From a virus: 43,071 bases of DNA. The notes under the pieces are model-generated. The model made no database searches, had not been told where the DNA came from, and worked only from the letters and a program-made list of their open reading frames with translations. Position numbers and translations under genes: made by a program. Within the stretch, counting starts at the first letter, position 1; each line of letters starts with the position of its first letter. Of the stretch, positions 7,577 to 41,045 are shown piece after piece. The stretch spans positions 1 through 43,071 of IMG/VR virus record IMGVR_UViG_3300017446_000007; one strand, 5' to 3'.

Positions 7577-7902
7577 AGTTTCCCCCTGCTTTGGAGATAG
7601 CCGCGAGCCTCGTCCGCCGCGGCTCGATTGGCGTTGGCGTGCTTCCTGTCGCGGATCGTGCGGCCGATCAGGAACATCAGCACGCCAAACGTCAGGATGG
7701 TCGCCGCCCACAGGTCGAACGGGCTTCCCTCTCGCTGCCAGATGACGGGGATCGTGAGAAAGCTGGTGCCCCCGACAAAGCCAAGCCCCGTGCGCTCCAG
7801 CCCGTTCATCGTCTCTCTAAAGCGGGTGATCTTGACCACGACCACAATGGTGACGAGCAGCCGCCCAAGGGTCATCATGGCAGCGATGAGGATATCGATC
7901 AT
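7573..7902 (-). CDS. Membrane protein, holin candidate
   Basis: 109 aa, about 3 hydrophobic segments, charged C-terminus, directly upstream of the endolysin. Confidence 0.55.
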   Translation of the reverse strand: MIDILIAAMMTLGRLLVTIVVVVKITRFRETMNGLERTGLGFVGGTSFLTIPVIWQREGSPFDLWAATILTFGVLMFLIGRTIRDRKHANANRAAADEARGYLQSRGKL

Positions 7903-8917: not shown

Positions 8918-11197
8918 TCATAGATTGGCGCCCGCGACCCAAGTACCCGGTGCCCCGGCGACCGTGCAGTATTGCGCCGTGGGCTGCCCGACTGTCGGTG
9001 TAGGCGTGCGCGTCATGGCTCCAGCTGGCCATGTTCCGATCGTAGGGGGCGATGCCGAAACGAGGGTTGGAAGGCCGGCATTCAACGCCACCTCGAATGC
9101 GATCGGGTTGCCGCCCAGCGCGCCACCACCAAACTTCTTGGTGTTGCCCGAGCTGCGATCGTTCTGGACATAAACCATGCCGGCTGATGTGGACGACCCA
9201 AAGGCGTAGGCGGTGTCGCACGCGCGGATCGCGTTCCCAGTGATCTCCGCGGCCAGAAGGCTGCCGACATAGAAAATCGGTGCGATGCCGTGCCGGAAGT
9301 TGCCAATCTCGTTGTTGCGGATCGTGAGGCCCGCCGACACCGCGTTCGCATCGAACAGGATGCCGGTGTTTTCCAAGGCAGTCGCCGTGAGGCCGGCTCC
9401 CGTCAGAACATTGCCGTCGACGATGATGCGTTCGTTACTCGCGCTGACGTTGAGGCCCAGCTGAATGGCGGGGGCCGTCGTGTTAGGACGGATGGCGCTG
9501 TTGCCCCTTAAGGTGAACGTTTCCGCGATGCTCCGAACGATGGTCTGGCTGTAATAATAGTCCGATCTCTCGGCACCGACCGACCGATTGCCTTCCACCG
9601 TGACATTGCGCGCGCCATACACGACGGCAACCGAATGCGAGGCTGATCCGACAATAGTGTTCCCGCGTACCATCGTGGAGGCCGTCTGCATCGGCTCCCC
9701 GTTCGGCTGCACGCAGATGCCCGCCGAGCCACCGAACGTGGGGTCGAGCGAGTTGATAACGAGGTTGCCCTCGACCAGATCGCCATCGCCCTGCGCAGCG
9801 AGGCAGATGCCCGACGACAGCCCCGGCTGAATGGGTCCGCCAGCCGGGATCAGACCGGTATCCGCGATGATGTTGCTCTTGATGATGACCGGATAATTGA
9901 TCGCGCCCGCCGTCTGACCAGCCTGACGGTAGATGCCGCCCGAGTTGGTGTTGCGGATCAGGTTGTCGGTGCAGATCACGGTCTTGGCGCTCTGGCCATA
10001 GCCCAGTACGATCCCCCACCGCCGCTTCAGCGTCGCCTGCGGGACAAGCGCCGCGGTCGCATAGTCCAGTGCCACGCACCAGTTGCCGTTTATGATGATG
10101 TCCTGATCCGAGCCCCCAGCCGAGACGTAAATGCCTTGGCTGTTGTTCGAGTAGCAGCGGTTGCCCGTGAGGTGCGCGCCTCGATACACATCAGTCCCAG
10201 ACGCGGACCAGACCATGATGTCCGCGGACGTGCTGCTGAGGTAGCGATTGCCGTAAAAGGTGTTATTGCGCACCGTGGCGAACAGGCAGTTCCGCAGATA
10301 AATGCCATTATGCTGGAAGTTGCTAATGCGGCAATCTTCTACAACGACATGCTCAGCGCCCTCAGCGAAGATGCCATTCGAGGTTTCAAAGGACGCGCCA
10401 TCGAGATTGCCGTTAGGTCCAATGATCGTCGCGTTGATGATCTTCGAGCCGTCACTCAGGCGGAAGGCATTCTTTCCGGGCGTGATCTGCTGGAACGTTG
10501 CGCCTCCGGCATCGAAGCAAACGCCAGCGGGAATGACGATTTCGTCGTTGATCCGGAATACCACGCCCTTCGTCGCCCACGACGGTGCGAATTTCGATCC
10601 GATCGAAATCGCGCGGGCGATGCTGTCGTTGTCTATCGCACCACTCGAAAGCAGTGCGGCCGGGCGAAGAAACAGCTCGCCTTGCCGGACCCAGGCCCCC
10701 TCCGCGGGCGGCACGTCATCCGCCGCAATGTACGTCGTGTCGTCCGCCTTGCTGGTGAAGTCGCCGGGGGTCCAATAGAAGCGCCCATCGGGAACCCCCG
10801 GCACGCCGACCAGCGATGCCGCCTTGCGGTCGATGTCCGACGCCTTGAAGGTGGCCAAGGCTGTGTAAGTGTTATCGGCTGCCCCAGCCGCACCCGTCGC
10901 GCCACCTACAGAGCCGGGCACATATGGGTCGACTTCGTCAAGCGTGGCCCCGAGCGCATCGGACAGAAGCACTCGGTACAACAGTGAAGGATCAATGTAG
11001 ATCGGAGGCCACTTCCCAGCCGCGTTTGCCTCAACGGGGTTATCAAGCGGCACCGTCAATGCAGCGTCCGCGTACACGGTCTGCGGCGTGTTCGTGCCTG
11101 AAATGAAAAACGCTAGCTTCGCGCCCGGCACCACCAGCCCATTCGGGTCCAGCGCGGGCCGAAAGGGGAGGTAGAATAGCTCGAATGGGTCAGCCAT
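8918..11197 (-). CDS. Tailspike with right-handed beta-helix (pectate-lyase-like) polysaccharide depolymerase domain
   Basis: 759 aa. Many periodic xGNxI/V repeats (NNTFYGN, LTGNRC, INGNWC, VEGNLV, VRGNTI, VEGNRS, LRGNSA, VDGNVL, IRNNEI, ITGNAI). Occupies the P22 gene 9 position. Confidence 0.75.
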   Translation of the reverse strand: MADPFELFYLPFRPALDPNGLVVPGAKLAFFISGTNTPQTVYADAALTVPLDNPVEANAAGKWPPIYIDPSLLYRVLLSDALGATLDEVDPYVPGSVGGATGAAGAADNTYTALATFKASDIDRKAASLVGVPGVPDGRFYWTPGDFTSKADDTTYIAADDVPPAEGAWVRQGELFLRPAALLSSGAIDNDSIARAISIGSKFAPSWATKGVVFRINDEIVIPAGVCFDAGGATFQQITPGKNAFRLSDGSKIINATIIGPNGNLDGASFETSNGIFAEGAEHVVVEDCRISNFQHNGIYLRNCLFATVRNNTFYGNRYLSSTSADIMVWSASGTDVYRGAHLTGNRCYSNNSQGIYVSAGGSDQDIIINGNWCVALDYATAALVPQATLKRRWGIVLGYGQSAKTVICTDNLIRNTNSGGIYRQAGQTAGAINYPVIIKSNIIADTGLIPAGGPIQPGLSSGICLAAQGDGDLVEGNLVINSLDPTFGGSAGICVQPNGEPMQTASTMVRGNTIVGSASHSVAVVYGARNVTVEGNRSVGAERSDYYYSQTIVRSIAETFTLRGNSAIRPNTTAPAIQLGLNVSASNERIIVDGNVLTGAGLTATALENTGILFDANAVSAGLTIRNNEIGNFRHGIAPIFYVGSLLAAEITGNAIRACDTAYAFGSSTSAGMVYVQNDRSSGNTKKFGGGALGGNPIAFEVALNAGLPTLVSASPPTIGTWPAGAMTRTPTPTVGQPTAQYCTVAGAPGTWVAGANL

Positions 11198-11273
11198 GTC
11201 GCTTCCGGTTCATGCACGGGAGGCGCCATCCGGGCCGATCATAAACCGCTATGCGGGGCGAGACGGGCAAGGT

Positions 11274-11282
11274 ATACTAGGC
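11274..11282 (-). promoter_or_regulatory. GCCTAGTAT motif copy 1
   Basis: Exact 9-mer on the minus strand, 77 nt upstream of the tailspike ATG 11197. Confidence 0.5.
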
Positions 11283-11284
11283 AG

Positions 11285-11470
11285 ATGATCGTAGGTCTGC
11301 TCGTCATCATCTGTGTTTTGCTTGCGGGCATCTGGTTCGACATGGCCGCAAACGCCCGCGCGACAAGGCAGCTTATTATTTCAGCCAGTGACCTAAATAT
11401 CGAAAAACAGCAGGCGACCGAACGCCGTCTAGAAACGATCGAACACAAGATCCCTTCGCGCTTCGAATGA
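11285..11470 (+). CDS. Small N-terminal-TM protein on the opposite strand (P22 sieA/immI position)
   Basis: 61 aa in a locally AT-rich stretch. TATACT (11273-11278) lies 6 nt before the ATG, suggesting a leaderless mRNA. Convergent with the upstream ejection gene. Confidence 0.45.
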   Translation: MIVGLLVIICVLLAGIWFDMAANARATRQLIISASDLNIEKQQATERRLETIEHKIPSRFE

Positions 11471-11475
11471 AGCGA

Positions 11476-13797
11476 CTACCTCCCGATGTTGCTGCCCGTG
11501 ACAGTCAGGCCCGGGATAAGACCAGCAGTGGTGTCGATGCTACGCGAGTATGCGCCGATGCGCCGAGCCTCGGCAGCCTGAACCGCAGCGTTAGCCTCTT
11601 GAACAGCTTGGCGGAGGGCCGCAGGATCAGACTCGCTGAGCAGCGAAGCAATGCTTTGACGAACGCGCTGTCCGGCCTCACCGCGGCCGAACTTACCAGC
11701 TTCAACGGCTTCGCTGAGCAGCGACAGGGCCATGCCGCTGATACCACCGCCCTGCGCGCCCCTAACCGCGACGTTGAAGGCCGTTTCCTGCAATCCGGGG
11801 TCCATCGTCTGCGCATCCGCGGCTAGGCGCTCAGCGGTCGGCGAGCCTGTCGCGACGGCCCGGAATGTGTCATTGCCCGAGCGCTCAAGGCCAAGAGACG
11901 CCTCAAAGCGTGCCAGCCCTTCGTCGCCGCCGAACAATGTTTGCAGGGCGGCGCGCTTCGCAGGTGTGCCCAGAACAGCTCGCGCCTTGTCAGCGTCATC
12001 AACGCGGCCTTCTAACGACTTTGCAAGCGCCGATCGGTAGCCGAGCGCAAATTGCTCGCGGTCTGGATCAGAGAGTGAGCCGACTTTACGGGCTAGCTCC
12101 TCATCAGACCAGCGTAGAGCGTCGCGACCTTCTTCAAGAGCAGACCGCGCTGACGCAGGACCAGCATATGCTGATCGGGCCTCGGCATAGGCGGGATTAA
12201 GACGATCGACCTCGTTGACGAGGCTCGCTCGCACATCGTTGATGGCTCGACCGGCCTCGTCAAGAACCAGCTTGCCGGTGAGCGGGTTGCGACTGGGTTC
12301 AAGTAAATCATCTAGGCCACGCTTTACGTAATCCAGCGTTTGGGTGGTGTACCCATTCTGGGTCGCAGCCGTTCCCTCTGCTAGCCGGCCATCAAGAGCG
12401 CTGGTGGCGTCGGTTAGCCCAGCACGCGCCTGAAGCAGCGCCTCTCGTGAAGCATCTGTGTCCGAGCCGGCGGTACGCAACGCAAGACGATGCGCCTCCT
12501 GAGCAGCATCGAATGCGCTTTTGGCTTCAGCCTGTTTTTGGAAGAGGTCGAGGCGGACCGGATTAAGTACGACATCGCCGTTTTCATCCAGCGCGAAGCC
12601 CATCTCGGACGGATCGCGGCGTTCGTTTGCAGCGATCGTGCGAGCGCGACTCAGCGCTTGGCGCCCCGCAGGGGTCGTCAGGATCGCATCAAGCTCAGGC
12701 GTCGAAACGACCGGCGCTGCGTAGGCCCGCTCGTAAATGGGTGCCGCTGCCTGTCGCGCTTGAGCCTGAAGCTGGTCGGAAACCTCATAAGTGTTGGCGA
12801 CAGGACCAAGATCGCGCTCGATGAACCCTCGAACGCGGTCACCTTGCTGCTGCTGACGTTCGGTAACCGCGTTGCGAACGATCGTCCGCGATGGACCAGG
12901 CTGACGCGACACTGAGGCAGCGAGGGTGCGGGCATTCTCGCCCGTGTCGGCAAGCATGAATGGCACGCCAAGGTTCCGCGCCTCATCCATCATAGCGCCT
13001 GCGCTGGCGCCTGTGTTGGCGTCAGCAGCGATAGCCTTCCCAACGATCTCGCGCGCCAGCTCATCCTGCGATTTGCCGAGCAGGCGTGACGCTCCCGCGC
13101 GGAGATTTGTTGCGACCGACCCCGCGACCGGGACCACACCTCCTAGAGCGCCGCCTAACCCGCCTCCCAAAATGCTGCCAGTGATGCTAGTTTCGGTGTC
13201 GCGTCCACCACCAAAGCCAGCCAGCGCGCCACCTAGCACACCGACCTTCGCACCGGATTTGATCGCCGATAGCGCATTCGGCACGGCGCGAACTGCGCCG
13301 GCCGGGTTCATACCAACGAAGCCACCAAGGATCGTCGCGAGCGTACCTGCGATCGGCGAGGCCGACAGTGCATCATCCGCACGCTTACGCTCGGCATCAC
13401 GGGCGTCATAATACGCCTGCTTTGGGTCGAATTCGCCGGTGAAAGGCGACTTGACGACATTCACCAGTGCGTTGCCAATGCCGGCGATTTCATCAGAGAG
13501 CCCGTAGAGCGCGCCTTGATTGATAAGCGTGCCGATACCCGAAGGAGCGCCGATCCTCTCCTGCGCGTCATAGAGCCGCTGCGCGCCCGGCGACAAAGCG
13601 TTTTCCACCGGCGTGGGAGCGATCGTTGGCGCAGCCACGGGCTTCGCGACGACGGTTTGCCGGCCGACATACTTCGACCCCCGCTGGCGAAGCTGGTCCT
13701 GTGCGAACGAGATCAGCTCGTCATCCGTCGCGTCTTCCGGCCCTTCGACCGTCATCGCTTCGCCATCAGGCGTGGTGATCTTGTACTGACGGGCCAT
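11476..13797 (-). CDS. Ejection/internal virion protein (P22 gp16 position)
   Basis: 773 aa, Ala/Gly-rich with a glycine-zipper hydrophobic block (GGALAGFGGG...GGGLGGALGG). Call is by synteny. Confidence 0.55.
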   Translation of the reverse strand: MARQYKITTPDGEAMTVEGPEDATDDELISFAQDQLRQRGSKYVGRQTVVAKPVAAPTIAPTPVENALSPGAQRLYDAQERIGAPSGIGTLINQGALYGLSDEIAGIGNALVNVVKSPFTGEFDPKQAYYDARDAERKRADDALSASPIAGTLATILGGFVGMNPAGAVRAVPNALSAIKSGAKVGVLGGALAGFGGGRDTETSITGSILGGGLGGALGGVVPVAGSVATNLRAGASRLLGKSQDELAREIVGKAIAADANTGASAGAMMDEARNLGVPFMLADTGENARTLAASVSRQPGPSRTIVRNAVTERQQQQGDRVRGFIERDLGPVANTYEVSDQLQAQARQAAAPIYERAYAAPVVSTPELDAILTTPAGRQALSRARTIAANERRDPSEMGFALDENGDVVLNPVRLDLFQKQAEAKSAFDAAQEAHRLALRTAGSDTDASREALLQARAGLTDATSALDGRLAEGTAATQNGYTTQTLDYVKRGLDDLLEPSRNPLTGKLVLDEAGRAINDVRASLVNEVDRLNPAYAEARSAYAGPASARSALEEGRDALRWSDEELARKVGSLSDPDREQFALGYRSALAKSLEGRVDDADKARAVLGTPAKRAALQTLFGGDEGLARFEASLGLERSGNDTFRAVATGSPTAERLAADAQTMDPGLQETAFNVAVRGAQGGGISGMALSLLSEAVEAGKFGRGEAGQRVRQSIASLLSESDPAALRQAVQEANAAVQAAEARRIGAYSRSIDTTAGLIPGLTVTGSNIGR

Positions 13798-20272: not shown

Positions 20273-20848
20273 TTAGACGCCGGTCGAGCCGGCCGCGCCG
20301 GTTTCGCTGGTCTGGTTGATACGGACGCGGGCAATGGCGTACTGACCGAACTCGTTGTCCGGTCGGCGCGCGAGGCCGACGATGCGAAGCTGGAGCGTGG
20401 CGGTCGTGGCGATGGACGAACTGTCCAGCATCCACCCCGACATGTTGTAGGCGTTGCCGCCCGTGCCAGCGATCAGGTTGGCGTTGGCGCCGATATCAGT
20501 CGCGGCGAGATTGCCGCTGCACATGATCTCATATTCGGCGTCAGGGTTGTGCTCGACTAGCGCGTGCACCTCGTTGCCGCCAAGGCGATAGCCCGCAGCG
20601 ACAATGCCGGGGTTCGGCGTAAAGCCCACCACGACACCGGTGACGCGGTTACCCGCACCCGCACTAGCGAGAACGACACTAGAGACGCCAACGGCATCGG
20701 CGGTGCCAGAGATGACCACCGGGTCGCCCCGGTAGACGGCGGTGTTGTCGGCGGCGAGCAGCGCGTACGGGTCGGTCCCGTCGTTGTAGGGTGCGCTGGC
20801 GCCGTCGCGAACGGGCATGAGCCCGAACGGAGCATTGGCGTTCGGCAT
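20273..20848 (-). CDS. Head-associated protein (possible decoration/cement protein)
   Basis: 191 aa, Gly/Ala/Asn-rich beta-type sequence directly upstream of the capsid gene. Confidence 0.4.
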   Translation of the reverse strand: MPNANAPFGLMPVRDGASAPYNDGTDPYALLAADNTAVYRGDPVVISGTADAVGVSSVVLASAGAGNRVTGVVVGFTPNPGIVAAGYRLGGNEVHALVEHNPDAEYEIMCSGNLAATDIGANANLIAGTGGNAYNMSGWMLDSSSIATTATLQLRIVGLARRPDNEFGQYAIARVRINQTSETGAAGSTGV

Positions 20849-20860
20849 GACTGCGGTTCC

Positions 20861-21316
20861 TTACGGAGAATAGGTCGAAGCGGTGAGCCGGTTGCCTGCG
20901 TCAGCGAAACGCTTGTCAGCGTCGGTCGCGTCCCGGCCTTCCGGGTCGGTGGATGCGCCGTGAAGCGCCGCCTGTTCGAGTTCTCGCCGCTGCACATCCT
21001 TGCGCGCCTGATCGTCTTCATCGAACTGGCGTGGCTTCATCAGGAGGTGCGCCATGATCGGCTTACCATGCTCATTGGTGCCGACAGGCCGCGGGTCGAC
21101 GCCGGGCACCTTGTCCCAGTCGTCGCGCTCGGTGGCGTTGTAAAGCCGAGGGCCAACGTCGTTGAACCAGCGAAGGCGGTGAGACTGGCCATGCTGCGCC
21201 TCGATCGCGGGCGGAACGGCAAGCTTCATGTCCATCGACTGGTCAAGCGTGCCATCCATGCGACGGCGGCGCTGTACGGCTTCCTCGGTGACGCGATCCC
21301 GCGGGGCCTGAGCCAT
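20861..21316 (-). CDS. Hypothetical head-module protein
   Basis: 151-aa charged protein between the scaffold-like and capsid genes. Confidence 0.5.
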   Translation of the reverse strand: MAQAPRDRVTEEAVQRRRRMDGTLDQSMDMKLAVPPAIEAQHGQSHRLRWFNDVGPRLYNATERDDWDKVPGVDPRPVGTNEHGKPIMAHLLMKPRQFDEDDQARKDVQRRELEQAALHGASTDPEGRDATDADKRFADAGNRLTASTYSP

Positions 21317-22116
21317 TATGCGTTCTCCTCGAAGTAGAGCTTGGAGTAATCCTCCAAGGTCTTGACCATACCGCGCTTGACGAAATCCCGTCCTGCGGCT
21401 TGGGCATTCGCCGGGAGATCAGCGAAGCCCTTGGCACGCGCGCTCGGCTGAGCAGCGCGGGTCTGCGGCGCCGACACACTGGCCGGCTGCTTGGCAGGAG
21501 CTTGCCCCTGCCCGAAAAGGTGCGGCATCTCGGCGCGGACAGCTTCTTCGGCCGCGCGTAGCTGCTCGCTGACGCTGACGCCCTGCTGCGCGAGCTGGGC
21601 GGTGACGCCCTGCGCGATCAGAGTGGCGCCGCGGTTCTGGTTGAACCATGAGTTGCGAGCAATGAAGGACTGCACCTCATCCTGAGCCGGCGCGGAGGCC
21701 TCGCGATCAATGCGCGTCAGTTCCTCGCGAGCGGCGCGGGCGCCCTCATGGTCCTTCTGCTCGACCGCATCGGCAAAGCGCTGCTCTACCTCGCGGCGGG
21801 CATCCTCAACGGCGCGGCGCTGGATCACCTCGGCAACGCGCCCGATGCTTTTTACCTCGGAACGCAAAGACTTCATCTCGTCAGCGCTCTCGCGGCTGCG
21901 CTTCATGCCGTAGGCGACGAATTCGCGCGGGTCGCGCCAATCATCCGGCTTGCCGCGCCATTCTTCCTTTGGCGTCCAGCCGTGTTCGCGGGCTACATCT
22001 TCGAAAGGATCTGCTTGCGACTGCGGCTCTGCGCCGCCTTCAGCACCCGGCTGCTGCTCTGCGCCGATCTGCGCAGTTTCTTCAGCTTGCTGCTGGCCTT
22101 CCACGAACTCGGTCAT
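21316..22116 (-). CDS. Scaffolding-like protein
   Basis: 266 aa, highly charged and helical (Glu/Arg/Ala/Gln-rich). AGGAGG before ATG 22116. Confidence 0.6.
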   Translation of the reverse strand: MTEFVEGQQQAEETAQIGAEQQPGAEGGAEPQSQADPFEDVAREHGWTPKEEWRGKPDDWRDPREFVAYGMKRSRESADEMKSLRSEVKSIGRVAEVIQRRAVEDARREVEQRFADAVEQKDHEGARAAREELTRIDREASAPAQDEVQSFIARNSWFNQNRGATLIAQGVTAQLAQQGVSVSEQLRAAEEAVRAEMPHLFGQGQAPAKQPASVSAPQTRAAQPSARAKGFADLPANAQAAGRDFVKRGMVKTLEDYSKLYFEENA

Positions 22117-22167
22117 CGGACCTCCTGCATCATCGCAGAAGGTGATGGATCAAGCCGGTATGCCTAA

Positions 22168-22176
22168 ATACTAGGC
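22168..22176 (-). promoter_or_regulatory. GCCTAGTAT motif copy 3
   Basis: Exact 9-mer in the 65-nt gap, 52 nt upstream of scaffold ATG 22116. Confidence 0.5.
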
Positions 22177-22181
22177 AAATG

Positions 22182-23432
22182 CTACGGGCGAGCTGGGACA
22201 GGGACAAGCCGCGGTTCGGCCTTCCACGTCACCCGGCTCACTTCCTTCATCTGGCGCCCATTGCCGAGGTCACCAGAGCTGCACGAGAGCAGCTTGTCGA
22301 TACAGTTCGCGATCCACATCGCCATCACGTCGTCGTCCCACGCGCCGAACCAGTCGGCGTGGATCGTCGAGCCCGCGGGCATGCGGGGCATCCCGGGCAT
22401 CTCGTCCGATGACAGATACCAGCTGTCCGCGCGCGCTTCGTCCACGGTGTACCATGCGCCCATCGTGAACGAAGGAATGACGTACGGGTGCGTCGCCGGG
22501 CACTTTAGGTAGCCCCACGACCCGTAGCCGGCGTCGGCGATGTGGTCGCGGTGGTTCGGGCTGTCGAGCCGCACGCCGTCCCAGCACGGCGGGGCGACAA
22601 TGATCCCGCCCAGCCGGTTGCCCGCGGGGCAGTTGGCCGCAGCCTCGGTGATCGTCTCGTAATGACCGGGCTTCGCGGTGGGGCCGTCGCAGTTGAAGTA
22701 GCCGCCCCCGGTCGCGGGCTTGCCGGTCATCGCGTCGTGGCCGAAGATGAAGCGCAGGCCGCGGGGCAGCGCGACGCACGCCTTGCCCTGACGCTGGCAC
22801 TCGGCGGCGTCCGCTGGCAGCCGCTTGTAATAGACGTTGATGAAGTCCGGCCGGACGACGTGGCCCTTGCCGTCGAGCATCGCCGGCATCCAGTATGCCG
22901 AGCGGTTCAAGACGTTGACGCAGGTGCTGTCGCCGGTCTTGCGCAGGCTGTCGTAGGTGCTGTTCGCGTTCGCCGCGGTGTTGCCGAACCACTGGTGCAG
23001 GTGGCTCTTGCCCGGCTGCTTCGGATAGACGAGCGGGTCGTCGTAGCTGACGGGCCCGGGGTTGCAGACGAACCGGAACGCGCCGACGGTATCCGGGCGG
23101 CCGGTCGGCGCGATCGCCCCCTTCTGCCCGCCGGTATAATCCTGCGTCCAGCCGATCAGCGAGGCGACATCCTCCTTCGTTGGGACGATCGCGGGCACCT
23201 TCGTGAAGTCGACGCCCAGCTCGGGCACCTCGATGTCGCCGACCGGCTTCGTGATCTTGCCTAGCGCGCGCAGATACTGCTCACGCCAGACCGGCCAGCT
23301 CTTCGCCACAGGCTCGCCCAGGGCCGACGCCACCGGCGGGGCGTCGCGCTTCAGCGTCGGCGTCTGGGCCGACACTGGCGCCGCGATGAAAGATGCGACC
23401 ACTGCCAATATGGTGCTAATCAGAATACGCAT
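22182..23432 (-). CDS. Secreted DUF1996-family protein
   Basis: 416 aa. Sec signal MRILISTILAVVASFIAAPVSA/QT. FRFVCNPGPVSYDDPLVYPKQPGKSHLHQWFGN matches the DUF1996 signature as recalled. Confidence 0.65.
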   Translation of the reverse strand: MRILISTILAVVASFIAAPVSAQTPTLKRDAPPVASALGEPVAKSWPVWREQYLRALGKITKPVGDIEVPELGVDFTKVPAIVPTKEDVASLIGWTQDYTGGQKGAIAPTGRPDTVGAFRFVCNPGPVSYDDPLVYPKQPGKSHLHQWFGNTAANANSTYDSLRKTGDSTCVNVLNRSAYWMPAMLDGKGHVVRPDFINVYYKRLPADAAECQRQGKACVALPRGLRFIFGHDAMTGKPATGGGYFNCDGPTAKPGHYETITEAAANCPAGNRLGGIIVAPPCWDGVRLDSPNHRDHIADAGYGSWGYLKCPATHPYVIPSFTMGAWYTVDEARADSWYLSSDEMPGMPRMPAGSTIHADWFGAWDDDVMAMWIANCIDKLLSCSSGDLGNGRQMKEVSRVTWKAEPRLVPVPARP

Positions 23433-23446
23433 CTCTCGACTTCCTG

Positions 23447-23452
23447 ATTATA
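23447..23452 (-). promoter_or_regulatory. Candidate -10 element for the DUF1996 gene
   Basis: Perfect TATAAT on the minus strand, 14 nt before ATG 23432. No convincing -35. A hairpin (23464-23481) lies just upstream. Confidence 0.35.
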
Positions 23453-23498
23453 GCTGAGAGCGACAGCCGCGGACACGGCTGCAACAGGGAGAGATTGG

Positions 23499-23678
23499 GT
23501 GTACGTGCCACGGGAACAGCTACGCGACATTCGCGTCGCCAAAGGCCAGATCGAAGCCGCCACGTCGGTAGATGAACTACGCGCCCCGCTGCTCGCGATA
23601 TGTCGCATCATCGAGCATGAACTCGCCGAGGATGTGGCTGATACCGACCTGATATTAGGTCGTCCGCGAGGCAGTTGA
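23499..23678 (+). CDS. Micro-ORF, 59 aa, opposite strand, divergent from the DUF1996 gene
   Basis: GTG lies 5 nt after GGGAGAG. Helical-looking VYVPREQLRDIRVAKGQIEAATSVDELRAPLLAICRIIEHELAEDVADTDLILGRPRGS. Confidence 0.35.
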   Translation: MYVPREQLRDIRVAKGQIEAATSVDELRAPLLAICRIIEHELAEDVADTDLILGRPRGS

Positions 23679-23685
23679 CCGGACA

Positions 23686-24861
23686 TCAAATGCCTCGCAA
23701 GCGGCGGAACAGCTCAGCGTAGGAAGCGGCCTCCAGACCATAGCCGAGCGCGGTCGGGTGAACGGTATCGCTGACCATGCCCGCAGCGCTCGATGCCGCG
23801 AACGAAACCCACGATGCGCGAACGTCAAGCACCGGAACGTCAGCCGCGAGCGCTGTTGCGATCGTTGCCGCGGCGTAGGCGTCCTGTTGCGGCGTAGCGC
23901 CGCTCGTCACGCTGTCGTAGATGGGTGTCGCTACGATCACGTCGCCCGACAGCTTGCCCTGCGCGATACCGGCCGCAAGGTTTGCCTGGAATACGCCGAT
24001 GTCGGTCGACTGACGCCAGTCGTTGATCGCCCAGTCACCGAGGATTGAGAGATCCGGTGCGATTGCTGTCCAAGCCTTCAGCGTCGAGGCGTTGGCGTCC
24101 GTGTCGTTGAGGAACTGTGCCGAGCGCTGCCCGCTGGCTCCCCAATTGAGCAAGCTGATTTCGCGGCGATTGCCTGCATCATCATAGGCCGTGACGCCGA
24201 CCAAACGAGGCGTTCCTGCCACCCAAGAGAGAGTGAGTGCATGCGTTCCAGAAGCACCTGCGCTGACAGTCGTCTTGGCGACTTGGATCGTGCCGCTGGT
24301 GGCGAGGTTCGTGGCTGCACCTCCATCCACCGCATACGAGAATGTATTGCCAGCTGCCCCATCACGCCACCAGATATCGAACTTGGTGACCGGTCCCTGC
24401 GGTGTGAATACGATCGTGCCTGCGGAACCGGCCCCGACAGCGAAGCCGTTGCCGCCGACCGTTGCGAAACTCGTCGGCGCTGCGCTGCCCGTGAACACCA
24501 GCCGCCCGTCAGCCGCTGCGATGGCGGCGCCCGTCTGCGCGCCGCCGTAACCTACCTTGTCGCCGAAGAAGTTGTTGGCTCCAGCCGGTATGCCCTGTGC
24601 CTGCAACATGCGGGCAAGCTGCATCGGCCACGAGTTGACTGCCTGCGTCGCCCCACCGCCGGTCGACTGTCCTGCTACGGTCGAAGGGCCGATGCACGCC
24701 ACAAGGGCGTTGCGGCTCGGGTTGGCCATCGCAGCACGGATGCGAAGCGTGTTCGACGGCTTCAGGTTGATGATGTTGACGCCGAGGTTGGCTGCCACAG
24801 CGTTGGAGGTCTTCGGCCCAGCGCTATTGAATTCCACGGCATCGAAGTTGGTAACGCCCAT
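23686..24861 (-). CDS. SGNH/GDSL-family hydrolase (esterase/deacetylase-like)
   Basis: 391 aa. Block I-like CIGPSTVAG, block III-like WAINDW, block V DTVHPT. GGGAG before the ATG. Confidence 0.6.
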   Translation of the reverse strand: MGVTNFDAVEFNSAGPKTSNAVAANLGVNIINLKPSNTLRIRAAMANPSRNALVACIGPSTVAGQSTGGGATQAVNSWPMQLARMLQAQGIPAGANNFFGDKVGYGGAQTGAAIAAADGRLVFTGSAAPTSFATVGGNGFAVGAGSAGTIVFTPQGPVTKFDIWWRDGAAGNTFSYAVDGGAATNLATSGTIQVAKTTVSAGASGTHALTLSWVAGTPRLVGVTAYDDAGNRREISLLNWGASGQRSAQFLNDTDANASTLKAWTAIAPDLSILGDWAINDWRQSTDIGVFQANLAAGIAQGKLSGDVIVATPIYDSVTSGATPQQDAYAAATIATALAADVPVLDVRASWVSFAASSAAGMVSDTVHPTALGYGLEAASYAELFRRLRGI

Positions 24862-24873
24862 GATCTAACTCCC

Positions 24874-25401
24874 CTACGAAGCAGGCAGAGCCAGAACGTC
24901 GAACGTGACGCCGGCTGCTGCGGTGGTGATGGGCGCGACGACAGCGCCAAGGATTGAGACGGTGACGCTCTGCGTCGTGAAGCACTTGATCGTGGCACCG
25001 GTGACGGTAACCGTACCAGCAACAGGGAAGCACAGCGGCGCACTCGCGGCGCTTGTCGACGTGACATAGGGCGTCACGGTCAGGCGCGGCGGACTGGGCA
25101 TCGCAGGCCACGCCACAGCGCCAGTGCCGCCCGTTGCAGTGACACCCTGCACTGTGCGGCTGATGCGCGGCTGCACGGCGTTCGCGAGCCGACACGCGTC
25201 GCCGCTGCCCGCAGCGCCCCCGACCGTCTCCATGGGCGGGATCGTGGCGCTAGGCTGGCATGCCGCCGCAGCAGCGTCAGCGGCTTGTTGCGCCTTCTGC
25301 GCGGCCGTTTGGACCTCCAGCTTGGTGGCGAGGTTCGTCGTATCGACACCAACTGGGTTAAGCGGCGTCACGACTTGCGCGAGAAGCAGCGCGGCGATCA
25401 T
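24874..25401 (-). CDS. Hypothetical protein, hydrophobic N-terminus, fibre-like coiled segment plus beta-rich C-terminus
   Basis: 175 aa, ATGA overlap upstream. Confidence 0.55.
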   Translation of the reverse strand: MIAALLLAQVVTPLNPVGVDTTNLATKLEVQTAAQKAQQAADAAAAACQPSATIPPMETVGGAAGSGDACRLANAVQPRISRTVQGVTATGGTGAVAWPAMPSPPRLTVTPYVTSTSAASAPLCFPVAGTVTVTGATIKCFTTQSVTVSILGAVVAPITTAAAGVTFDVLALPAS

Positions 25402-25781
25402 TGGATATCGCCCGCGAGGTATGCCGTCGCGCTTGCCGTCTTCGTGAAACAGCCAGTGGACGAGAACACGACCACCACGCCATTATCGAACCGGAGCGGT
25501 GACCCGCGGAAGTTCAGATCCAGCCCGGTATTGGCCGCGATCGGGAGGCATCGAGCCGGGGTAACAGCACCATCAGCCGGCACCGTCGTGGCATCGAACA
25601 ACATCACATAGCCAGCCGATGCACCAGTGGTGATGCTCAGGCCGGCGAGGTTACTCGTGCCAGCGCGGAGTACGAAGCCAGCCGACACGGCGGTCGTCGC
25701 GCGGGTCTTCGACAGAGTTTGTGCCGACACGGGAGCGGCGAGACAGAATACGGCAAGCGCCGCCAGCAGGTAGCACTTCAT
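25398..25781 (-). CDS. Secreted hypothetical protein
   Basis: 127 aa from ATG 25781 (ATGA overlap). Sec signal MKCYLLAALAVFCLAAPVSA/QT shares AAPVSAQT with the DUF1996 protein. Confidence 0.6.
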   Translation of the reverse strand: MKCYLLAALAVFCLAAPVSAQTLSKTRATTAVSAGFVLRAGTSNLAGLSITTGASAGYVMLFDATTVPADGAVTPARCLPIAANTGLDLNFRGSPLRFDNGVVVVFSSTGCFTKTASATAYLAGDIQ

Positions 25782-26122
25782 GCCGCCTCTCCATGGAAGA
25801 TCGCCGCCACGTCCTTGTCGCGGCACAGCCGGTAGGTTTTGCCATCGGCACCCTCGATCAACGAGCCGGCATAGCGGCCGAACAGCACCACATCGCCCGG
25901 CTTGCCGCGATGATCGTCACCCTCGGCGAACGTCCACGCCAGCGGCGACTGCGCCACGATCCGCCCGCGCTGCGTCGCGACCTCATCCGTTTCGCGCTTG
26001 GCCTGCGGGATGTAGATGCCGCCGGCCGTGCGCTCCTCGGTCGCCTCAGGGGCGATCAGCACGTAGTATTCGACCGGACGCAGGCCGGGGTTGCAGTCAT
26101 TCAGGCTGGGGATCGTTCCCAT
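25778..26122 (-). CDS. GroES/Cpn10-like co-chaperonin
   Basis: 114 aa. LRPVEYYVLIAPE..EERTAGGIYIP...GRIVA...PGDVVLFGRYAG...DKDVAAI aligns by eye with the GroES pattern. Confidence 0.65.
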   Translation of the reverse strand: MGTIPSLNDCNPGLRPVEYYVLIAPEATEERTAGGIYIPQAKRETDEVATQRGRIVAQSPLAWTFAEGDDHRGKPGDVVLFGRYAGSLIEGADGKTYRLCRDKDVAAIFHGEAA

Positions 26123-26348
26123 GAGCGCTCATCCAATCTTCGTAGGTTGTGTCGGGGATGGCGCGGTACGCATCCGCGCGAGTGCGAAGCTCCGAGAGCA
26201 AAACCGGGTCAGGCGGCTCTCCGTTGTCGAAGGTGCGCGTGATCCACTCATCACGCTGCAAGCCGGCGAAGGAGGCCATCGCTCCCATAACCCAGCGCGT
26301 CACCGGGTCCGTTCTCCATGCCTGGAACTCCTCCTGCGAGGGGGTCAA
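26097..26348 (-). CDS. Hypothetical protein
   Basis: 83 aa. TTG start 5 nt after GGGAGG. Overlaps the last 98 nt of the portal gene out of frame. Confidence 0.5.
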   Translation of the reverse strand: MTPSQEEFQAWRTDPVTRWVMGAMASFAGLQRDEWITRTFDNGEPPDPVLLSELRTRADAYRAIPDTTYEDWMSAHGNDPQPE

Positions 26349-28332
26349 CGGCGCCTCCCATCATCATGCCGGCTTCCGCGGCTGTGCGGATGGCCTGCGC
26401 TTGGTCCTTCTGGGCCGAAGCGCTGTTGCGCTCGGTTTCGGATGCAGTCTTGGCCAGCTCGGCCTGGGCGCCAGCCGCGGCCATCGGGTCAGGCTGCGGG
26501 GGCGGCGCGAACAGCTCGTCCGCATCCTCGACATCAGCCGCCTCAAGCACGCGCTGGTGAACCTTGCGCTGGTCGTAGAGCGGGTTGTTTGCCGCCACGG
26601 ACATAACGAACTGCGCACGCGCCAGCTTCTGCATCCGCGTCACGCTGGTGGGGTCAGACACGGGCCGAATGTCGAAATCGGACGCGTTGAAATCCGCCTC
26701 GAAGTCGGCCGACTGATCGTCAAGCACCTCAAGGTAATCAGCCGCAGCCTTCTCGCCGCCGAAGCGCGAGATATTCGAGTAGAGGAGAGCAAACTCCTCA
26801 CGCAGCGAGCGATAGATGCGCTTGTAGATCGCGGTGAAGACCTGCAATCCCTGCTCGATCAACGCCAGCGTGGTGCCGACCTGCCCGTTGTTCGATGCTT
26901 CACCGGTGATGACATCCTTCACGCTGGAGATGTCGCGAGCCGCCGACAGCATCATGTCGAGAATGGACACCATCACCTGCGAAGGGCCGGGGAAGGTGCG
27001 CTCGTAAATGCCGTTTCGCAGCTGGTCACCGGTCGCGCCGTTGACGGTCTTGTACTCGCCCGGCGCGAAGCGCAGCGACGACGTGCGGCCCTGACCCTGC
27101 AACCGGATGCCGGAAGCGATAAACCCGCCCCCCGCTACCTGAGCATGACCCGCGTCAATGAGCTGGTTGATCGACGTGTTGACGACATCGCCGATTTGCT
27201 CAAGCAGATGCCCGAGCCCGATGTCGTAGAACTTGCCCTGTGGATGCGGGAAGAAGCTATACTTGATGTAGAACTGTTGGCGCTTGATCGACAGCACGTC
27301 GCCGTTGTCGTTCATGGCGACATCGCGCGGGCTGTAATTCGCCTCGATGCGCAGCACCTTCGCTGTCGAGTGGTCAACCGTGACGATGTACGGCTCTTGG
27401 ATGCCGTCACCATCCACGTCGATCAAGCGGTGTTGTTCCAAGAGCAGACGGGGCGATTGGTCGTCATCACCCTCAGGCAGCAATTCAGTGGTGCGGTATT
27501 CGCCTAGCCGCATCCGCTCTTGGATCTGATATGGGAAGACGTCCGGCACTTCTTCGGTGAGCCGCGGCGTCGTATCGCAGGACCGCGCGCCCGAAGGCAC
27601 GATGATGCGCAGGGCGGAGACGAGCGCGGCACGCTGCTCCTGCTTGGCCACATCGTACCAGACCTTGCGGAAAGCGCAGCCGTCGATCGGAAGCTGAAGC
27701 AACAGTGCGTCTGTGTCGCTCTCCCAATCTTCCATGCGGTAGAACAGGACGGTGTTGAGGTAGTCGCGCACGCGCTGAGCCCGAGCGGCCTTCGCGCCCG
27801 GCGGCACAGCCCACACCATCTGCGGCTGTCCGTCCGGCCCCATGATCGGACCCTGCGGCCCCATCATCGGCAAAGGGATCATACCTTGCGGCGTCTGGAT
27901 CATCACCGGCCGGCCCTTGTCGGCACCGACGACCTTAACGCTGACTGCCTCGTCGCCCTTCACGATCGCGGGATAGGCGCGAGCGTTGAACTGGGTCGCG
28001 GCCACCGTCAGCAACGGGTAGTGAACGTTGGACGCCCGGTTCCAGGGATAGTCCTTCTGCCCCTTGGCTTCCTGCGCCGCCGACCGCTGCGCCTTCTCGA
28101 CCACTCGCTTCCAGTCAGCGCGGTCGGCATCATCCTTCGTGTAGTCGGCAACCACGTCCGCTCCCAGCCGGGACAGATCACCTTCACTCCACGCCGCGGA
28201 GATGTCGCCTACACTGTTGGCCAGCGAGAGCAGCTTTTCGATCGCAGGCGGCTCCCCCAAAACGACATCGACCGGCTCGCCTGCGAAAGCGTCCGGTTCG
28301 ATCATCAGCGCGTCTTGGGGGAGCGTCGCCAT
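26251..28332 (-). CDS. Portal protein
   Basis: 693 aa, shortly downstream of the terminase genes. Size and position fit; family not verified. Confidence 0.7.
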   Translation of the reverse strand: MATLPQDALMIEPDAFAGEPVDVVLGEPPAIEKLLSLANSVGDISAAWSEGDLSRLGADVVADYTKDDADRADWKRVVEKAQRSAAQEAKGQKDYPWNRASNVHYPLLTVAATQFNARAYPAIVKGDEAVSVKVVGADKGRPVMIQTPQGMIPLPMMGPQGPIMGPDGQPQMVWAVPPGAKAARAQRVRDYLNTVLFYRMEDWESDTDALLLQLPIDGCAFRKVWYDVAKQEQRAALVSALRIIVPSGARSCDTTPRLTEEVPDVFPYQIQERMRLGEYRTTELLPEGDDDQSPRLLLEQHRLIDVDGDGIQEPYIVTVDHSTAKVLRIEANYSPRDVAMNDNGDVLSIKRQQFYIKYSFFPHPQGKFYDIGLGHLLEQIGDVVNTSINQLIDAGHAQVAGGGFIASGIRLQGQGRTSSLRFAPGEYKTVNGATGDQLRNGIYERTFPGPSQVMVSILDMMLSAARDISSVKDVITGEASNNGQVGTTLALIEQGLQVFTAIYKRIYRSLREEFALLYSNISRFGGEKAAADYLEVLDDQSADFEADFNASDFDIRPVSDPTSVTRMQKLARAQFVMSVAANNPLYDQRKVHQRVLEAADVEDADELFAPPPQPDPMAAAGAQAELAKTASETERNSASAQKDQAQAIRTAAEAGMMMGGAVDPLAGGVPGMENGPGDALGYGSDGLLRRLAA

Positions 28333-28580: not shown

Positions 28581-29315
28581 TTAGTACCCAGTGGTTTCGT
28601 AGCGATCAGACGGACGAGCCCGCTCATCGTCATACCGCTCCACCGGCTTTGTCATTGCACGACCCATGCCGGACATCACCAGATAGCGCTCAGCGTCCAT
28701 GAGGTGATCGCGCTCTTTGACGATCTTACCCTTCTCGTCTCGGCGATATAGTCGGCGCTCCGATCGCAGGTTTTGAAGCGTGGAGAACGCGCGGAGCCGG
28801 CGAGACTGTAAGCGACGATAGACCGCGAAGATGCCGGCCTCGACCTCATTATTGGCGAGATGCAGGTCGAGCCCCATCGTCGCGTACTCGTCCCGTAACG
28901 CCCGCCCGTCGACCTGACTGCGGCCCCGCGAGGCAGGATCGATTACCCCTGGGATCCAGTCGCCCCGTGCGCGGATCGCCTCGGCGTGGACCTGCGGAGG
29001 GGCCTCGCCGACGTAGTATTCGTCGTACTCGTAGATCGTATCTGTCTCGCGGTCCCAAGCGCCCCAAATGACAGCCGTGCGGTTCCATCCGACGTCAAGC
29101 GCATAGGCTCGTGGCCAGTATGCCGGGATCTGGAACGGCTCAACGATCCAGTCGTCTTCGCTCACCGGGTAGATCACCCCTGAGCCCAGCGCCGGTATGC
29201 CCTTGGATCGCGCATCGCGCTGGTGTGGGGGGATCGACGCCATCAACTCGGCTTTGTCGTTCGCCGAGAGATGGGGCACGTCGTCCCAATCGATCTGGAT
29301 GGACCACTTGCTCAC
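28581..29315 (-). CDS. Terminase large subunit, nuclease (C-terminal) part
   Basis: 244 aa. YALDVGWNRTAVIW...IYEYDEY...ERDHLMDAERY nuclease-domain signature. GTG start in a GTGA overlap. Confidence 0.8.
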   Translation of the reverse strand: MSKWSIQIDWDDVPHLSANDKAELMASIPPHQRDARSKGIPALGSGVIYPVSEDDWIVEPFQIPAYWPRAYALDVGWNRTAVIWGAWDRETDTIYEYDEYYVGEAPPQVHAEAIRARGDWIPGVIDPASRGRSQVDGRALRDEYATMGLDLHLANNEVEAGIFAVYRRLQSRRLRAFSTLQNLRSERRLYRRDEKGKIVKERDHLMDAERYLVMSGMGRAMTKPVERYDDERARPSDRYETTGY

Positions 29316-30004
29316 GCGACAGGTGCCAGATTAGGCAGAAACGACAGCGCAACGTCGGTCAGGCCAGACAGCGGTGTGAAGGTGGCGATCACCATGCCGC
29401 GCGTCGTCATCGTGCGGATCAGCGCCTCGGTGTAAATGTCCATTGGCGGCTCCTCGTCCAGCCAGATGCCGTCGCGCTCGGTGCCCTGCCACTTGGCGCG
29501 GCCCTGATCGTAGCTACGAAACTGGCACACGCTGTTGCCGCCGCTGACGTGTCGAACGGTGCCAATGTCGATCAGCCCCGGCACACCCGATGCCGTCGTC
29601 ATGCCGAGGATCGTGTCGCGCGGGATCATGCCGGTGCCGCGATCCTCCACCGGGCCGAACAGCTTCCGACAAGGCACGTCGCGTGTCGTGGTAGAGGTGT
29701 CGCCGCCGCACAGCCAGTTGGTCGGGTGGTCAAAGCGATAGCCTGGCCACCAGTCGGGATACAGCCCCGTCAGGTGCAAGGTGACCTCGTAGGCTCCGAT
29801 ACCCTCGCTCTTGCCGACGCGGTTGGCAGCGACCGCAGCGCGCTCACGGTGCTGGAGGCCAGCCGCGAAAAACTGCATATGCTTTCCGTACAGCTCGCGG
29901 CGCAACGGGCCTTCATCAGGGTAATAAGTCCATAGCCGGCGACCAGCTTGGCGGCGTTCCTTCTCTTCGAGCAACGCCAGCAATTCGAGCTTATCCGCGA
30001 TCAC
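29312..30004 (-). CDS. Terminase large subunit, ATPase (N-terminal) part
   Basis: 230 aa. Walker A AANRVGKSEG, Walker B GIWLDEEP, coupling motif ATFTP. Confidence 0.8.
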   Translation of the reverse strand: MIADKLELLALLEEKERRQAGRRLWTYYPDEGPLRRELYGKHMQFFAAGLQHRERAAVAANRVGKSEGIGAYEVTLHLTGLYPDWWPGYRFDHPTNWLCGGDTSTTTRDVPCRKLFGPVEDRGTGMIPRDTILGMTTASGVPGLIDIGTVRHVSGGNSVCQFRSYDQGRAKWQGTERDGIWLDEEPPMDIYTEALIRTMTTRGMVIATFTPLSGLTDVALSFLPNLAPVA

Positions 30005-40701: not shown

Positions 40702-41045
40702 CCAGCGATGTTCTGACCCGCGGCAAATCGCCGGCCGCATGGTGCGCAGCGTTCAAGGAGAAAGGGCTGATCCTTTCTGAACGCACGCTGCGCTCCCGCG
40801 CGCGCGAACTCAACGAGTGCTATATTGTCGGCGCAGCGATGCTGATCCTGCCCGAACAGATTGATCGAATATTGGAGGAAAGCGCGTGCCGCTCGAAGCA
40901 TACCCCCGCGGCAAAACCTGGTGGGCGCGGGGCAAGGTCGAATACGACGGCCTCCCTATCACCGGCTACATCCGCGAAAGCACTGGCGCATCTACAGAAG
41001 CAGGCGCGCAAGAGTGGATCCGCACACGGACGACGCTCGAATTAA
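40698..41045 (+). CDS. Excisionase-position DNA-binding-like protein
   Basis: 115 aa. The first ~60 aa look like a real protein. The last 160 nt overlap int out of frame and are low-complexity. Confidence 0.4.
   Translation: MTSDVLTRGKSPAAWCAAFKEKGLILSERTLRSRARELNECYIVGAAMLILPEQIDRILEESACRSKHTPAAKPGGRGARSNTTASLSPATSAKALAHLQKQARKSGSAHGRRSN

Follow-up and report, generated by a model that had tools for sequence, protein, structure and literature searches.

A variable gene slot between the co-chaperonin and scaffold genes of a temperate phage, carrying a predicted Ape1-like esterase, a DUF1996 protein and a predicted exported protein pair

Between the portal and scaffold genes of a metagenomic virus contig of 43,089 bp (IMG/VR record IMGVR_UViG_3300017446_000007), of which 43,071 nt were analysed and are here called the window, lies a row of seven open reading frames (ORFs) that an initial annotation had described as a 4-kb island of seven extra genes within the head module. 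All seven ORFs are present. In the order of the minus strand they are p83, a small ORF of 83 amino acids (aa) belonging to the lineage core (26097..26348, minus strand); a GroES/Cpn10-like co-chaperonin (25778..26122, minus); sig127, a predicted Sec-exported protein of 127 aa (25398..25781, minus), the ATG of which overlaps the GroES stop codon (ATGA); p175, 175 aa, from a family of predicted exported proteins of about 170-200 aa (24874..25401, minus); SGNH391, 391 aa, a predicted SGNH O-acetylesterase with modelled Ape1 architecture (23686..24861, minus); as59, 59 aa, on the opposite strand (23499..23678, plus), convergent with SGNH391 and divergent from the next gene; and a DUF1996 protein, predicted to be Sec-exported and host-derived (22182..23432, minus). 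The row is flanked on the left by the portal gene (26251..28332, minus; SU10_portal 5e-8, phrog_1216 3e-17) and on the right by a scaffold-like gene of 266 aa (21316..22116, minus), both outside the island. Related prophages are found in Sphingomonas melonis AS2.3 and Sphingomonas sp. Leaf32, and three island proteins also have their nearest homologues in Sphingomonas. The comparisons below indicate that the stretch is not one 4-kb island; the observation made in the initial annotation was confirmed in part, and the interpretation given to it was supported in part.

The relatives compared were three deposited phages (MW202785, Alcaligenes phage QDWS535 and MW202796) and 24 IMG/VR loci, compared by tblastn with the late proteins of the window; across the 24 loci, numbered L, the portal is 48-94% identical. 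In the three deposited phages the order is portal, small ORF, GroES, scaffold, two small genes and capsid, without gaps. Wherever a relative has sequence at this place, its GroES-like gene adjoins the portal, homologues of p83 lie directly behind the portal in L004-L025 (tblastn), and ORFs of 55-74 aa occupy the p83 site in MW202785, OK172329 and MW202796. Since p83 and GroES come behind the portal in all relatives for which the region is covered, even in distant ones devoid of cargo, both belong to the lineage core and are not extra genes, and the true variable region is 25777-22117. The alternative left open at the outset, that the same genes sit here in most relatives, holds for just two of them, GroES and p83. 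The p83 ORF overlaps the 3' end of the portal gene by 98 nt (26251-26348) in a different frame, and the gene calls at its site in L034 are 60 and 62 aa, so that its real start is probably Met21. The co-chaperonin call was borne out by Cpn10 (PF00166, 4.2e-13; 49.6 bits against a cut-off of 21.1; residues 14-109 of 114) and phrog_3188 (6e-13). The protein stays below the NCBIfam GroES equivalog cut-offs (47 versus at least 96 bits) and thus represents a divergent phage-type member; its dN/dS ratio is 0.13. Phage co-chaperonins are known from the T4 gp31 type, which the gene resembles as a phage GroES homologue accompanying head genes; the likeness extends to 25778-26122 only, and not to the variable cargo.

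The variable slot is bounded on the left by GroES, and among 17 relatives the distance from this gene to the scaffold gene takes values between 0 and 6.8 kb. It is about 0 kb in L001-L003, 0.45-0.65 kb in L015, L017 and L018, 0.8-1.0 kb in L024 and L025, about 1.6 kb in L011 and L022, 2.6 kb in L012, 2.8 kb in L005, 3.3-3.4 kb in L006, L020 and L021, 3.66 kb in the window and 6.8 kb in L008, and in all relatives examined the scaffold-like gene comes next, behind the slot cargo or, where there is none, behind GroES. Relatives with a portal at least 76% identical, which make up the nearest subclade, keep sig127 and p175 as well, and DNA homology to them stops exactly at the p175 stop codon (24873); it resumes at 22011 against L005 and L006, and at 23247, inside DUF1996, against L050. 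A DNA-level search of the island against deposited phages gave no match. The right edge of the slot is a pre-scaffold spacer (22117..22181) with GGAGG as the ribosome-binding site of the scaffold gene, and a TGCCTA-GTATT-TAGGCA hairpin directly follows the DUF1996 stop codon (22150-22181). These sequence comparisons show the slot to be a recombination hot spot within the head module, whose cargo is exchanged among phages with capsids up to 98% identical, and which holds at least two independently mobile gene sets, namely sig127 with p175 and a cassette of esterase, as59 and DUF1996. The block did not behave as a unit among the relatives, being a composite of core p83/GroES, a subclade-conserved exported pair and the separately mobile cassette. 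All island genes are under purifying selection (dN/dS 0.08-0.37). Co-transcription, also proposed in the initial annotation, is supported for GroES, sig127, p175 and SGNH391, which are translationally coupled (ATGA overlaps, 12-nt spacer), but not for DUF1996, which is set apart by the convergent gene and a 66-bp divergent spacer. A consensus promoter and terminator scan of the slot found no full sigma-70 site and no terminator, the counts being at or below shuffle expectation.

The cargo carried by relatives is of several kinds. The gene that follows p175 in L005-L008 and L050 opens with a conserved N-terminal module of about 80 aa (MA[KR]TD[IV]TAINAKTISVNGVP...) followed by unrelated C-termini, and four of these anchor-module genes encode 553, 679, at least 949 and 1373 aa. 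In L008 the module is encoded apart, within an ORF of 206 aa that immediately precedes the 1373-aa gene, a short anchor ORF is followed by a 453-aa protein in L005, and the 679-aa anchor protein of L006 bears a SASA acetylesterase domain. A conserved anchor with a variable C-terminus is the classical architecture of receptor-binding fibres. In the closest relative, L050 (capsid 98% identical), the order is p175, a 553-aa anchor-bearing fibre, DUF1996 (69%) and scaffold, the fibre occupying the position held by the esterase in the window. The anchor module of the lineage is absent from SGNH391 and from the entire window. In L021 the slot between GroES and scaffold holds an antisense Acyl_transf_3 O-acetyltransferase (10913-11968, minus; phrog_3333), which is a typical serotype-conversion moron. 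In distant members of the clade the slot starts with a phrog_22789-like family of about 120-157 aa lacking a leader (L012 12255-12653; L024 4692-5084; L018 13134-13607; L022 12608-13003), and a protein of this family (9635-9997) directly precedes the SGNH esterase in the unrelated P22-portal phage L037.

The first of the two mobile sets consists of sig127 and p175. The length of sig127 is 127 aa and not 142, all homologues beginning at the same Met. Its leader (MKCYLLAALAVFCLAAPVSA/QT) and that of DUF1996 (MRILISTILAVVASFIAAPVSA/QT) are of the classical n/h/c Sec type, with a positive n-region, an h-region of 10-15 residues, an A-x-A c-region and retention of the leader in homologues, all read from the sequence; both end in AAPVSA/QT, as had been noticed earlier. 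The shared AAPVSAQT is encoded by 18/24 identical nucleotides with the differences at wobble sites, which rules out an origin by duplication or recombination and, together with the family-specific conserved leaders, points to ordinary Sphingomonas signal-peptide usage. The sig127 family comprises 560 homologues, mostly on phage-sized contigs, with a hydrophobic leader in 104 of the top 120, conserved Cys78/Cys111 and dN/dS of 0.09-0.18. The p175 family (62 cluster representatives, nearly all of 170-200 aa) shows a full leader in most of the 30 representatives inspected; hence p175, initially called fibre-like, belongs to a predicted exported family and not to the fibres. Its leader is reduced to nine residues (MIAALLLAQ/VV, 25375-25401) in the window, L034, L005 and L007, and is complete in L006, L008, L044 and most representatives. 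A hidden upstream start of p175 in the window was rejected, no in-frame start being found there, and the mature part is under strong purifying selection despite the shortened leader.

Export is thus predicted for sig127 and DUF1996, which carry Sec-type leaders, as do most members of the p175 family. Conserved cysteines occur in both the sig127 and p175 families, which fits a periplasmic location, and the earlier preference for periplasmic targeting over virion incorporation is upheld, as a prediction, by the conserved leaders and the conserved Cys in the mature parts of sig127, DUF1996 and the p175 family generally. Neither sig127 nor p175 was matched in Pfam, PHROG, NCBIfam, PADLOC or, by sequence or profile, in PDB. 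Both recur in other phages: in the Mu-like phage L044 sig173 is succeeded by a p175 homologue and then by a 1970-aa protein that matches GDSL_2 weakly, and in the myovirus L042 a sig127 homologue lies just before a 974-aa protein in the tail-fibre region. A reading of the pair as spanins was discarded, sig127 having no lipobox Cys at +1, the C-terminal two-thirds of p175 being beta-rich and the lysozyme being encoded elsewhere (7022-7711). As numerous unannotated phage-encoded exported families, sig127 and p175 are candidates for new exclusion or envelope-acting functions.

The esterase call for SGNH391 was confirmed by GDSL_2 (2.4e-8; 35.1 bits against a cut-off of 32.9). SGNH blocks I, II, III and V are present as G58-P-S60, G241/G244, N280 and D365-x-x-H368, and Ser60, Gly241, Asn280, Asp365 and His368 are invariant across 25 homologues; the catalytic site is therefore intact. 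An AlphaFold2 (AF2) model (predicted local distance difference test, pLDDT, 89) places a CBM35-like beta-sandwich (strands 121-226) between Ser60 of block I and Gly241 of block II. Foldseek returned Ape1 (8gld/4k3u) as the best PDB match (E 1e-15, template-modelling (TM) score 0.65-0.73), the next class being CE2 with TM about 0.3, as well as CBM35/CBM6 domain matches. Sequence identity to Ape1 is 13-14%, and a sequence search against PDB gave nothing significant. The N-terminus (MGVTNFDAVEFNSAG...) has no signal peptide, and residues 1-25 are predicted to be disordered. Phage proteins annotated as tail fibre, minor tail or hydrolase (BFVD) often have the same fold, and a published study describes it in prophage proteins of Klebsiella for which a role as capsule-modifying tailspike esterases is predicted (PMC12115436). 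Since the Ape1-type fold is so widespread among phage fibre and hydrolase proteins, it cannot by itself fix the substrate of SGNH391.

All 31 homologues making up the SGNH391 family seem to be carried by phages, with no chromosomal ape1 orthologue among them; tblastn against deposited phages gave no match. The homologue occupies the same slot in L034, follows lysozyme and two small ORFs in the P2-like prophage L035, lies among head-completion and tail genes in the P22-portal podovirus L037, stands between a tail fibre and a PG_binding_1 protein, directly preceding the latter, in the siphovirus L041, and follows a GH19 endolysin and two small ORFs in L045. Homologues 78% identical across the enzyme have unrelated first residues (about 30), joined at a conserved NLKPSNTL. 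In one protein, P0129, an esterase of this family is fused to an N-terminus resembling a siphovirus tail tube, with a Pfam TTP match below threshold (19.0 versus 24.2 bits).

The DUF1996 call was likewise sustained (PF09362, 7.9e-34; 118 bits against a cut-off of 27; full model, 1-237). The signatures described for the domain, DPIxxP at the head and HxDxxxGW at the tail (PMC4738358), are represented by D132-P-L-V-Y-P137 and by H358-A-D-W-F-G-A-W365, the latter one residue off the fungal signature. Ten Cys and five His are invariant in the alignment. An AF2 model (pLDDT 87) found no fold match in PDB by Foldseek (best E 0.058, TM about 0.1); the copper amine oxidase rows in that output are noise, and a sequence search against PDB gave nothing significant. 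GC content at third codon positions (GC3) is 0.90, versus 0.63-0.85 in the other late genes measured, and the best matches are chromosomal Sphingomonas proteins with multiple paralogues (65% identity), so the gene is in all probability host-derived. The allele of the window is only 65-69% identical to those of relatives with capsids up to 98% identical. One chromosomal paralogue, P0081 (58%), is part of a Wzx/Wzy polysaccharide locus that includes PEP-CTERM and XrtV genes; its neighbours there are Wzy_C on one side and Acyl_transf_3/Bac_transf on the other. The closest chromosomal copy (65%) was seen on a 3.67-Mb contig of a Sphingomonas phyllosphaerae metagenome-assembled genome (L033) along with two further paralogues; it resides in an island flanked by integrase and AlpA, beside a 1244-aa protein with a FAD_oxidored match.

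DUF1996 was detected on 51 IMG/VR contigs, and on phage contigs besides these, where it often ends the late operon after lysozyme or follows a GH26-like or a large beta-helix or fibre-like gene; it stands at the end of the lysis cassette in about 10 loci. A Sec-type leader is kept in the phage copies examined (window, L034, L040, L039, L028, L045, L050 and L051). Among deposited phages, tblastn detected only one uncultivated phage and Salmonella records, and a plasmid collection searched for annotated DUF1996 contexts yielded distant taxa only. The only experimental work found on the domain concerns a vacuolar stress phenotype in a fungus (PMC4738358), and a study of fungal secretomes, in which DUF1996 co-occurs with CBM1, CBM6 and WSC modules, suggested a role in relation to polysaccharides (PMC7679414). 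A literature search found no work on the present phage lineage or on the function of bacterial DUF1996. For this large family of bacteria and fungi, to which no function has been given, the phage context yields a testable surface-polysaccharide hypothesis.

The gene between esterase and DUF1996, as59, ends 7 nt from the SGNH391 stop codon. L034 (65 aa) and L045 (64 aa, 43% identical, E 6e-9) each have a homologue placed and oriented like as59, which supports the earlier opposite-strand call as a real gene; as59 was seen only together with the cassette and has no family match in Pfam, PHROG, PADLOC or NCBIfam. The 66-bp spacer that separates it from DUF1996 (23433..23498) is a candidate promoter/operator of the latter. 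Read directly, it contains TATAAT 16 nt upstream of the DUF1996 ATG, AGGAAG as ribosome-binding site and a CAGCCG-N6-CGGCTG hairpin, and DUF1996 may thus have its own regulation, although neither these elements nor the hairpin behind DUF1996 were picked up by the consensus scans.

L045, which has a different backbone, carries SGNH (78%), the convergent 64-aa ORF (43%), a GH26-like gene and DUF1996, and shares no gene with the window outside this cassette, while in L034 the SGNH, as59-like, GH26-like and DUF1996 genes all lie in the slot. In the GH26-like family both catalytic Glu residues are invariant, with a profile match in PDB to GH26 mannanases and lichenase (E 1.7e-9), and the gene is directly upstream of DUF1996 in L051, L053, L054 and L060. 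It can be deduced that esterase, as59 and DUF1996 form a separately mobile cassette. In two of these loci (L060 4783-6777, L053 4667-6615) a tail-tube-like N-terminus is fused to a long extension, with the GH26-like and DUF1996 genes following it.

Taken together, the slot may be considered as a host-surface-glycan module, in which SGNH391 and DUF1996 would edit a host polysaccharide and thereby alter the receptor; among the readings considered this is the most likely one, with a probability of roughly 45%. The common glycan theme is suggested by the fibres, the SASA esterase and the O-acetyltransferase found in the slots of sister phages, by the glycanase of the cassette and by the DUF1996 paralogue in the polysaccharide locus. 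The envelope-remodelling role entertained in the initial annotation fits this context, to which the Ape1-fold esterase also belongs. SGNH391 would be made late and reach the envelope when the cell lyses, or possibly as part of the virion, and might strip O-acetyl groups from the exopolysaccharide or capsule of Sphingomonas; DUF1996 would be exported to the periplasm and act on the same polymer, as presumably does its paralogue in the Wzy-type locus. Editing of the receptor could free the progeny from debris or matrix, and infected or lysogenic cells might become poor targets for related phages. Sig127 and p175 would be periplasmic partners, possibly exclusion or receptor-masking factors.

Several points weigh against such a role. 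The best structural match of SGNH391 is a peptidoglycan esterase and not a polysaccharide esterase; the link between DUF1996 and exopolysaccharide comes from one locus type, seen in three samples, and the integrase-flanked L033 island of the closest chromosomal DUF1996 has no glycan genes. No catalytic mechanism can be assigned to DUF1996, its fold having no match in PDB. Furthermore, the cassette of the window is without the GH26-like gene, the p175 leader is shortened there, sig127 and p175 are tied to glycans by gene neighbourhood only, and the consensus scan gave no promoter or terminator in the slot.

The glycan-editing reading places the cargo near phage morons and the genes of lysogenic conversion, among which are glycan modifiers such as the O-antigen acetylase Oac of Sf6 and exported morons of the lambda lom/bor type. 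Like these, the slot seems to hold host-derived genes of deviant composition in the late region, predicted to be exported or envelope-acting and with an upstream spacer of their own (for DUF1996, the atypical GC3 and the 66-bp spacer with TATAAT), and the acetylase of L021 fills the same slot. By contrast, the cargo here is an uncharacterised DUF1996 protein and no known modifier, and the slot lies between co-chaperonin and scaffold, not near att/int or tail fibres.

A second likeness is with NanS-p, which is not known to be part of the virion. SGNH391 shares with NanS-p of Shiga toxin (Stx) prophages (PMC10462455) that it is a prophage esterase with SGNH-type blocks (in NanS-p, a SASA domain) and a carbohydrate-binding beta-sandwich. 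NanS-p adjoins lysis genes and is late-expressed, and the SGNH391 homologues of L035, L041 and L045 are likewise beside lysis genes. NanS-p belongs to another sequence family (SASA/DUF1737), its domains are arranged differently, neither a DUF1996 nor a GH26 gene accompanies it, and it acts on the sialic acid of host-animal mucin, a substrate irrelevant for Sphingomonas.

A more far-reaching form of the glycan-editing reading, doubtful at present, is that two undescribed phage-borne systems meet in the slot and jointly edit the host surface glycan from the periplasm. One would be a triad of the sig127 family (at least 560 members), the p175 family and a long, often esterase-bearing fibre-like protein; the other would be the cassette of esterase, GH26-like protein and DUF1996, in which DUF1996 would represent a new disulfide-rich and His-rich fold of polysaccharide-active enzymes. 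If true, this would provide a first entry to the biochemistry of DUF1996, a domain that fungal secretomes contain as well. That phages carry SGNH esterases, a GroES gene beside the portal and mosaic hot spots is already well known; new in detail are the position of the slot, the recurrent esterase/GH26/DUF1996 cassette and the two large unannotated exported phage families. The slot, lying between co-chaperonin and scaffold, suggests that host-interaction cargo can sit inside a head module, and its position matters for automated annotation and for predicting the host range of Sphingomonas phages.

Two other readings of the esterase are unlikely. According to one, SGNH391 is a phage analogue of Ape1 that de-O-acetylates MurNAc so that the lysozyme can cut the wall, DUF1996 and the others being unrelated morons. 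The Ape1 peptidoglycan O-acetylesterases are its top structural matches by a wide margin, and like Ape1 of N. meningitidis (4k3u) and C. jejuni (8gld) it has a CBM35-like insertion in the SGNH fold and the same catalytic residues. The phage encodes a Phage_lysozyme endolysin, and homologues abut lysis genes in three other backbones (L035, L041 and L045). The bacterial Ape1 is a periplasmic enzyme; SGNH391, in keeping with a lysis helper, lacks a leader, and would have to enter the periplasm through holin lesions. It differs from Ape1 in that same lack and in having homologues that all look phage-borne. However, its identity to Ape1 is low, the esterase of the window is 16 kb from the lysozyme gene, in a slot filled by fibres in sisters, and in L037 the homologue is surrounded by head and tail genes. 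The end of the lysis cassette takes up morons in general, as the DUF1996 loci there illustrate, the fold also serves phage fibre esterases acting on capsule or O-antigen, and the esterase gene moves together with a GH26-like glycanase.

According to the other, also improbable, SGNH391 is borne on the virion in place of the anchor-bearing fibre of the sister phages and deacetylates the receptor glycan at adsorption, as do the SGNH deacetylases of phage tail fibres and tailspikes, gp63.1 of E. coli phage G7C and gp66 of Pectobacterium phage Possum (PMC9569702). It would dock via its variable first 30 or so residues, perhaps through p175 or another adaptor. Sisters have a fibre-type gene at exactly this position, one of them with an acetylesterase domain; the N-termini are swapped at the NLKPSNTL junction, the first 25 residues are predicted to be disordered, in P0129 a tail-tube-like N-terminus is fused to the enzyme, the annotations of the BFVD neighbours are minor tail or tail fibre, and the enzyme of L037 follows a protein of the family that also heads the slot in distant clade members. 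With the G7C and Possum enzymes SGNH391 shares the SGNH catalytic domain, the late operon and horizontal mobility among unrelated phages, and with the Klebsiella prophage tailspike esterases (PMC12115436) the Ape1/CBM35-like architecture. Unlike them it stands alone with 391 aa, has neither a trimeric fibre shaft nor the lineage anchor, which no gene of the window bears, and is placed in the head module and not with the tailspike (8918-11197). Near-full-length homologues in myovirus, siphovirus and two podovirus backbones are hard to square with a specific docking site, the p175-family proteins are predicted to be exported and hence unlikely adaptors, and the tail-tube match of P0129 is below the Pfam threshold.

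Less probable still is a non-enzymatic exclusion, in which sig127 and p175 would be periplasmic superinfection-exclusion or receptor-masking proteins in the style of T5 Llp or Cor, carried beside whichever receptor-binding gene the phage has, with esterase and DUF1996 incidental. Both families overwhelmingly have predicted Sec leaders and are under strong purifying selection, and the pair or a single copy lies just upstream of long fibre-like genes in myovirus L042 and Mu-like L044. On the other hand, the mature domain of sig127 is about 50% identical across very different phages whose adjoining large genes are unrelated, which argues against masking of a cognate receptor. In addition, the p175 leader is degenerate in the window, neither protein resembles any known exclusion protein or PADLOC model, and coupling to the late operon fits poorly with exclusion expressed in a lysogen. 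The idea of a defence island was dropped, as none of the seven products matched a PADLOC model (E up to 0.01; 0 families) and NCBIfam detected only GroES. Finally, an assembly-assist set, in which GroES and the downstream genes would aid folding of capsid or fibre, is very improbable and would apply at most to GroES, for although GroES is a core gene inside the head module and coupled in translation to sig127, p175 and SGNH391, distant relatives have GroES alone without slot cargo, exported proteins cannot act on cytoplasmic assembly, and the cargo is swapped among near-identical capsid backgrounds.

As to the rest of the window, an integrase (40886-41989), the Phage_lysozyme endolysin (7022-7711), a beta-helix tailspike (8918-11197) and, among the tail genes, a Phage_stabilise protein similar to P22 gp10 mark it as a near-complete temperate phage. 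The P22 gene order recognised in the initial annotation is approximate: the gp10-like protein and the tailspike conform to it, as opposed to the SU10_portal portal and the Mu gpT-like capsid. The small terminase resembles that of Sf6, and the tail genes are akin to those of P22; the components of the head module, judged by the portal and capsid matches, are not P22-like. Between scaffold and capsid (20273-21316) two genes of 151 and 191 aa, with no match in Pfam or NCBIfam, are kept in all relatives. The large terminase (28581-30004, minus) consists of two overlapping ORFs joined by GTGA, one for the ATPase (29312-30004, minus; Terminase_6N) and one for the nuclease (28581-29315, minus; Terminase_6C). 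The same split recurs in L006, in L009 and in the deposited annotation of MW202785, and is therefore a conserved feature of the lineage and not a sequencing error.

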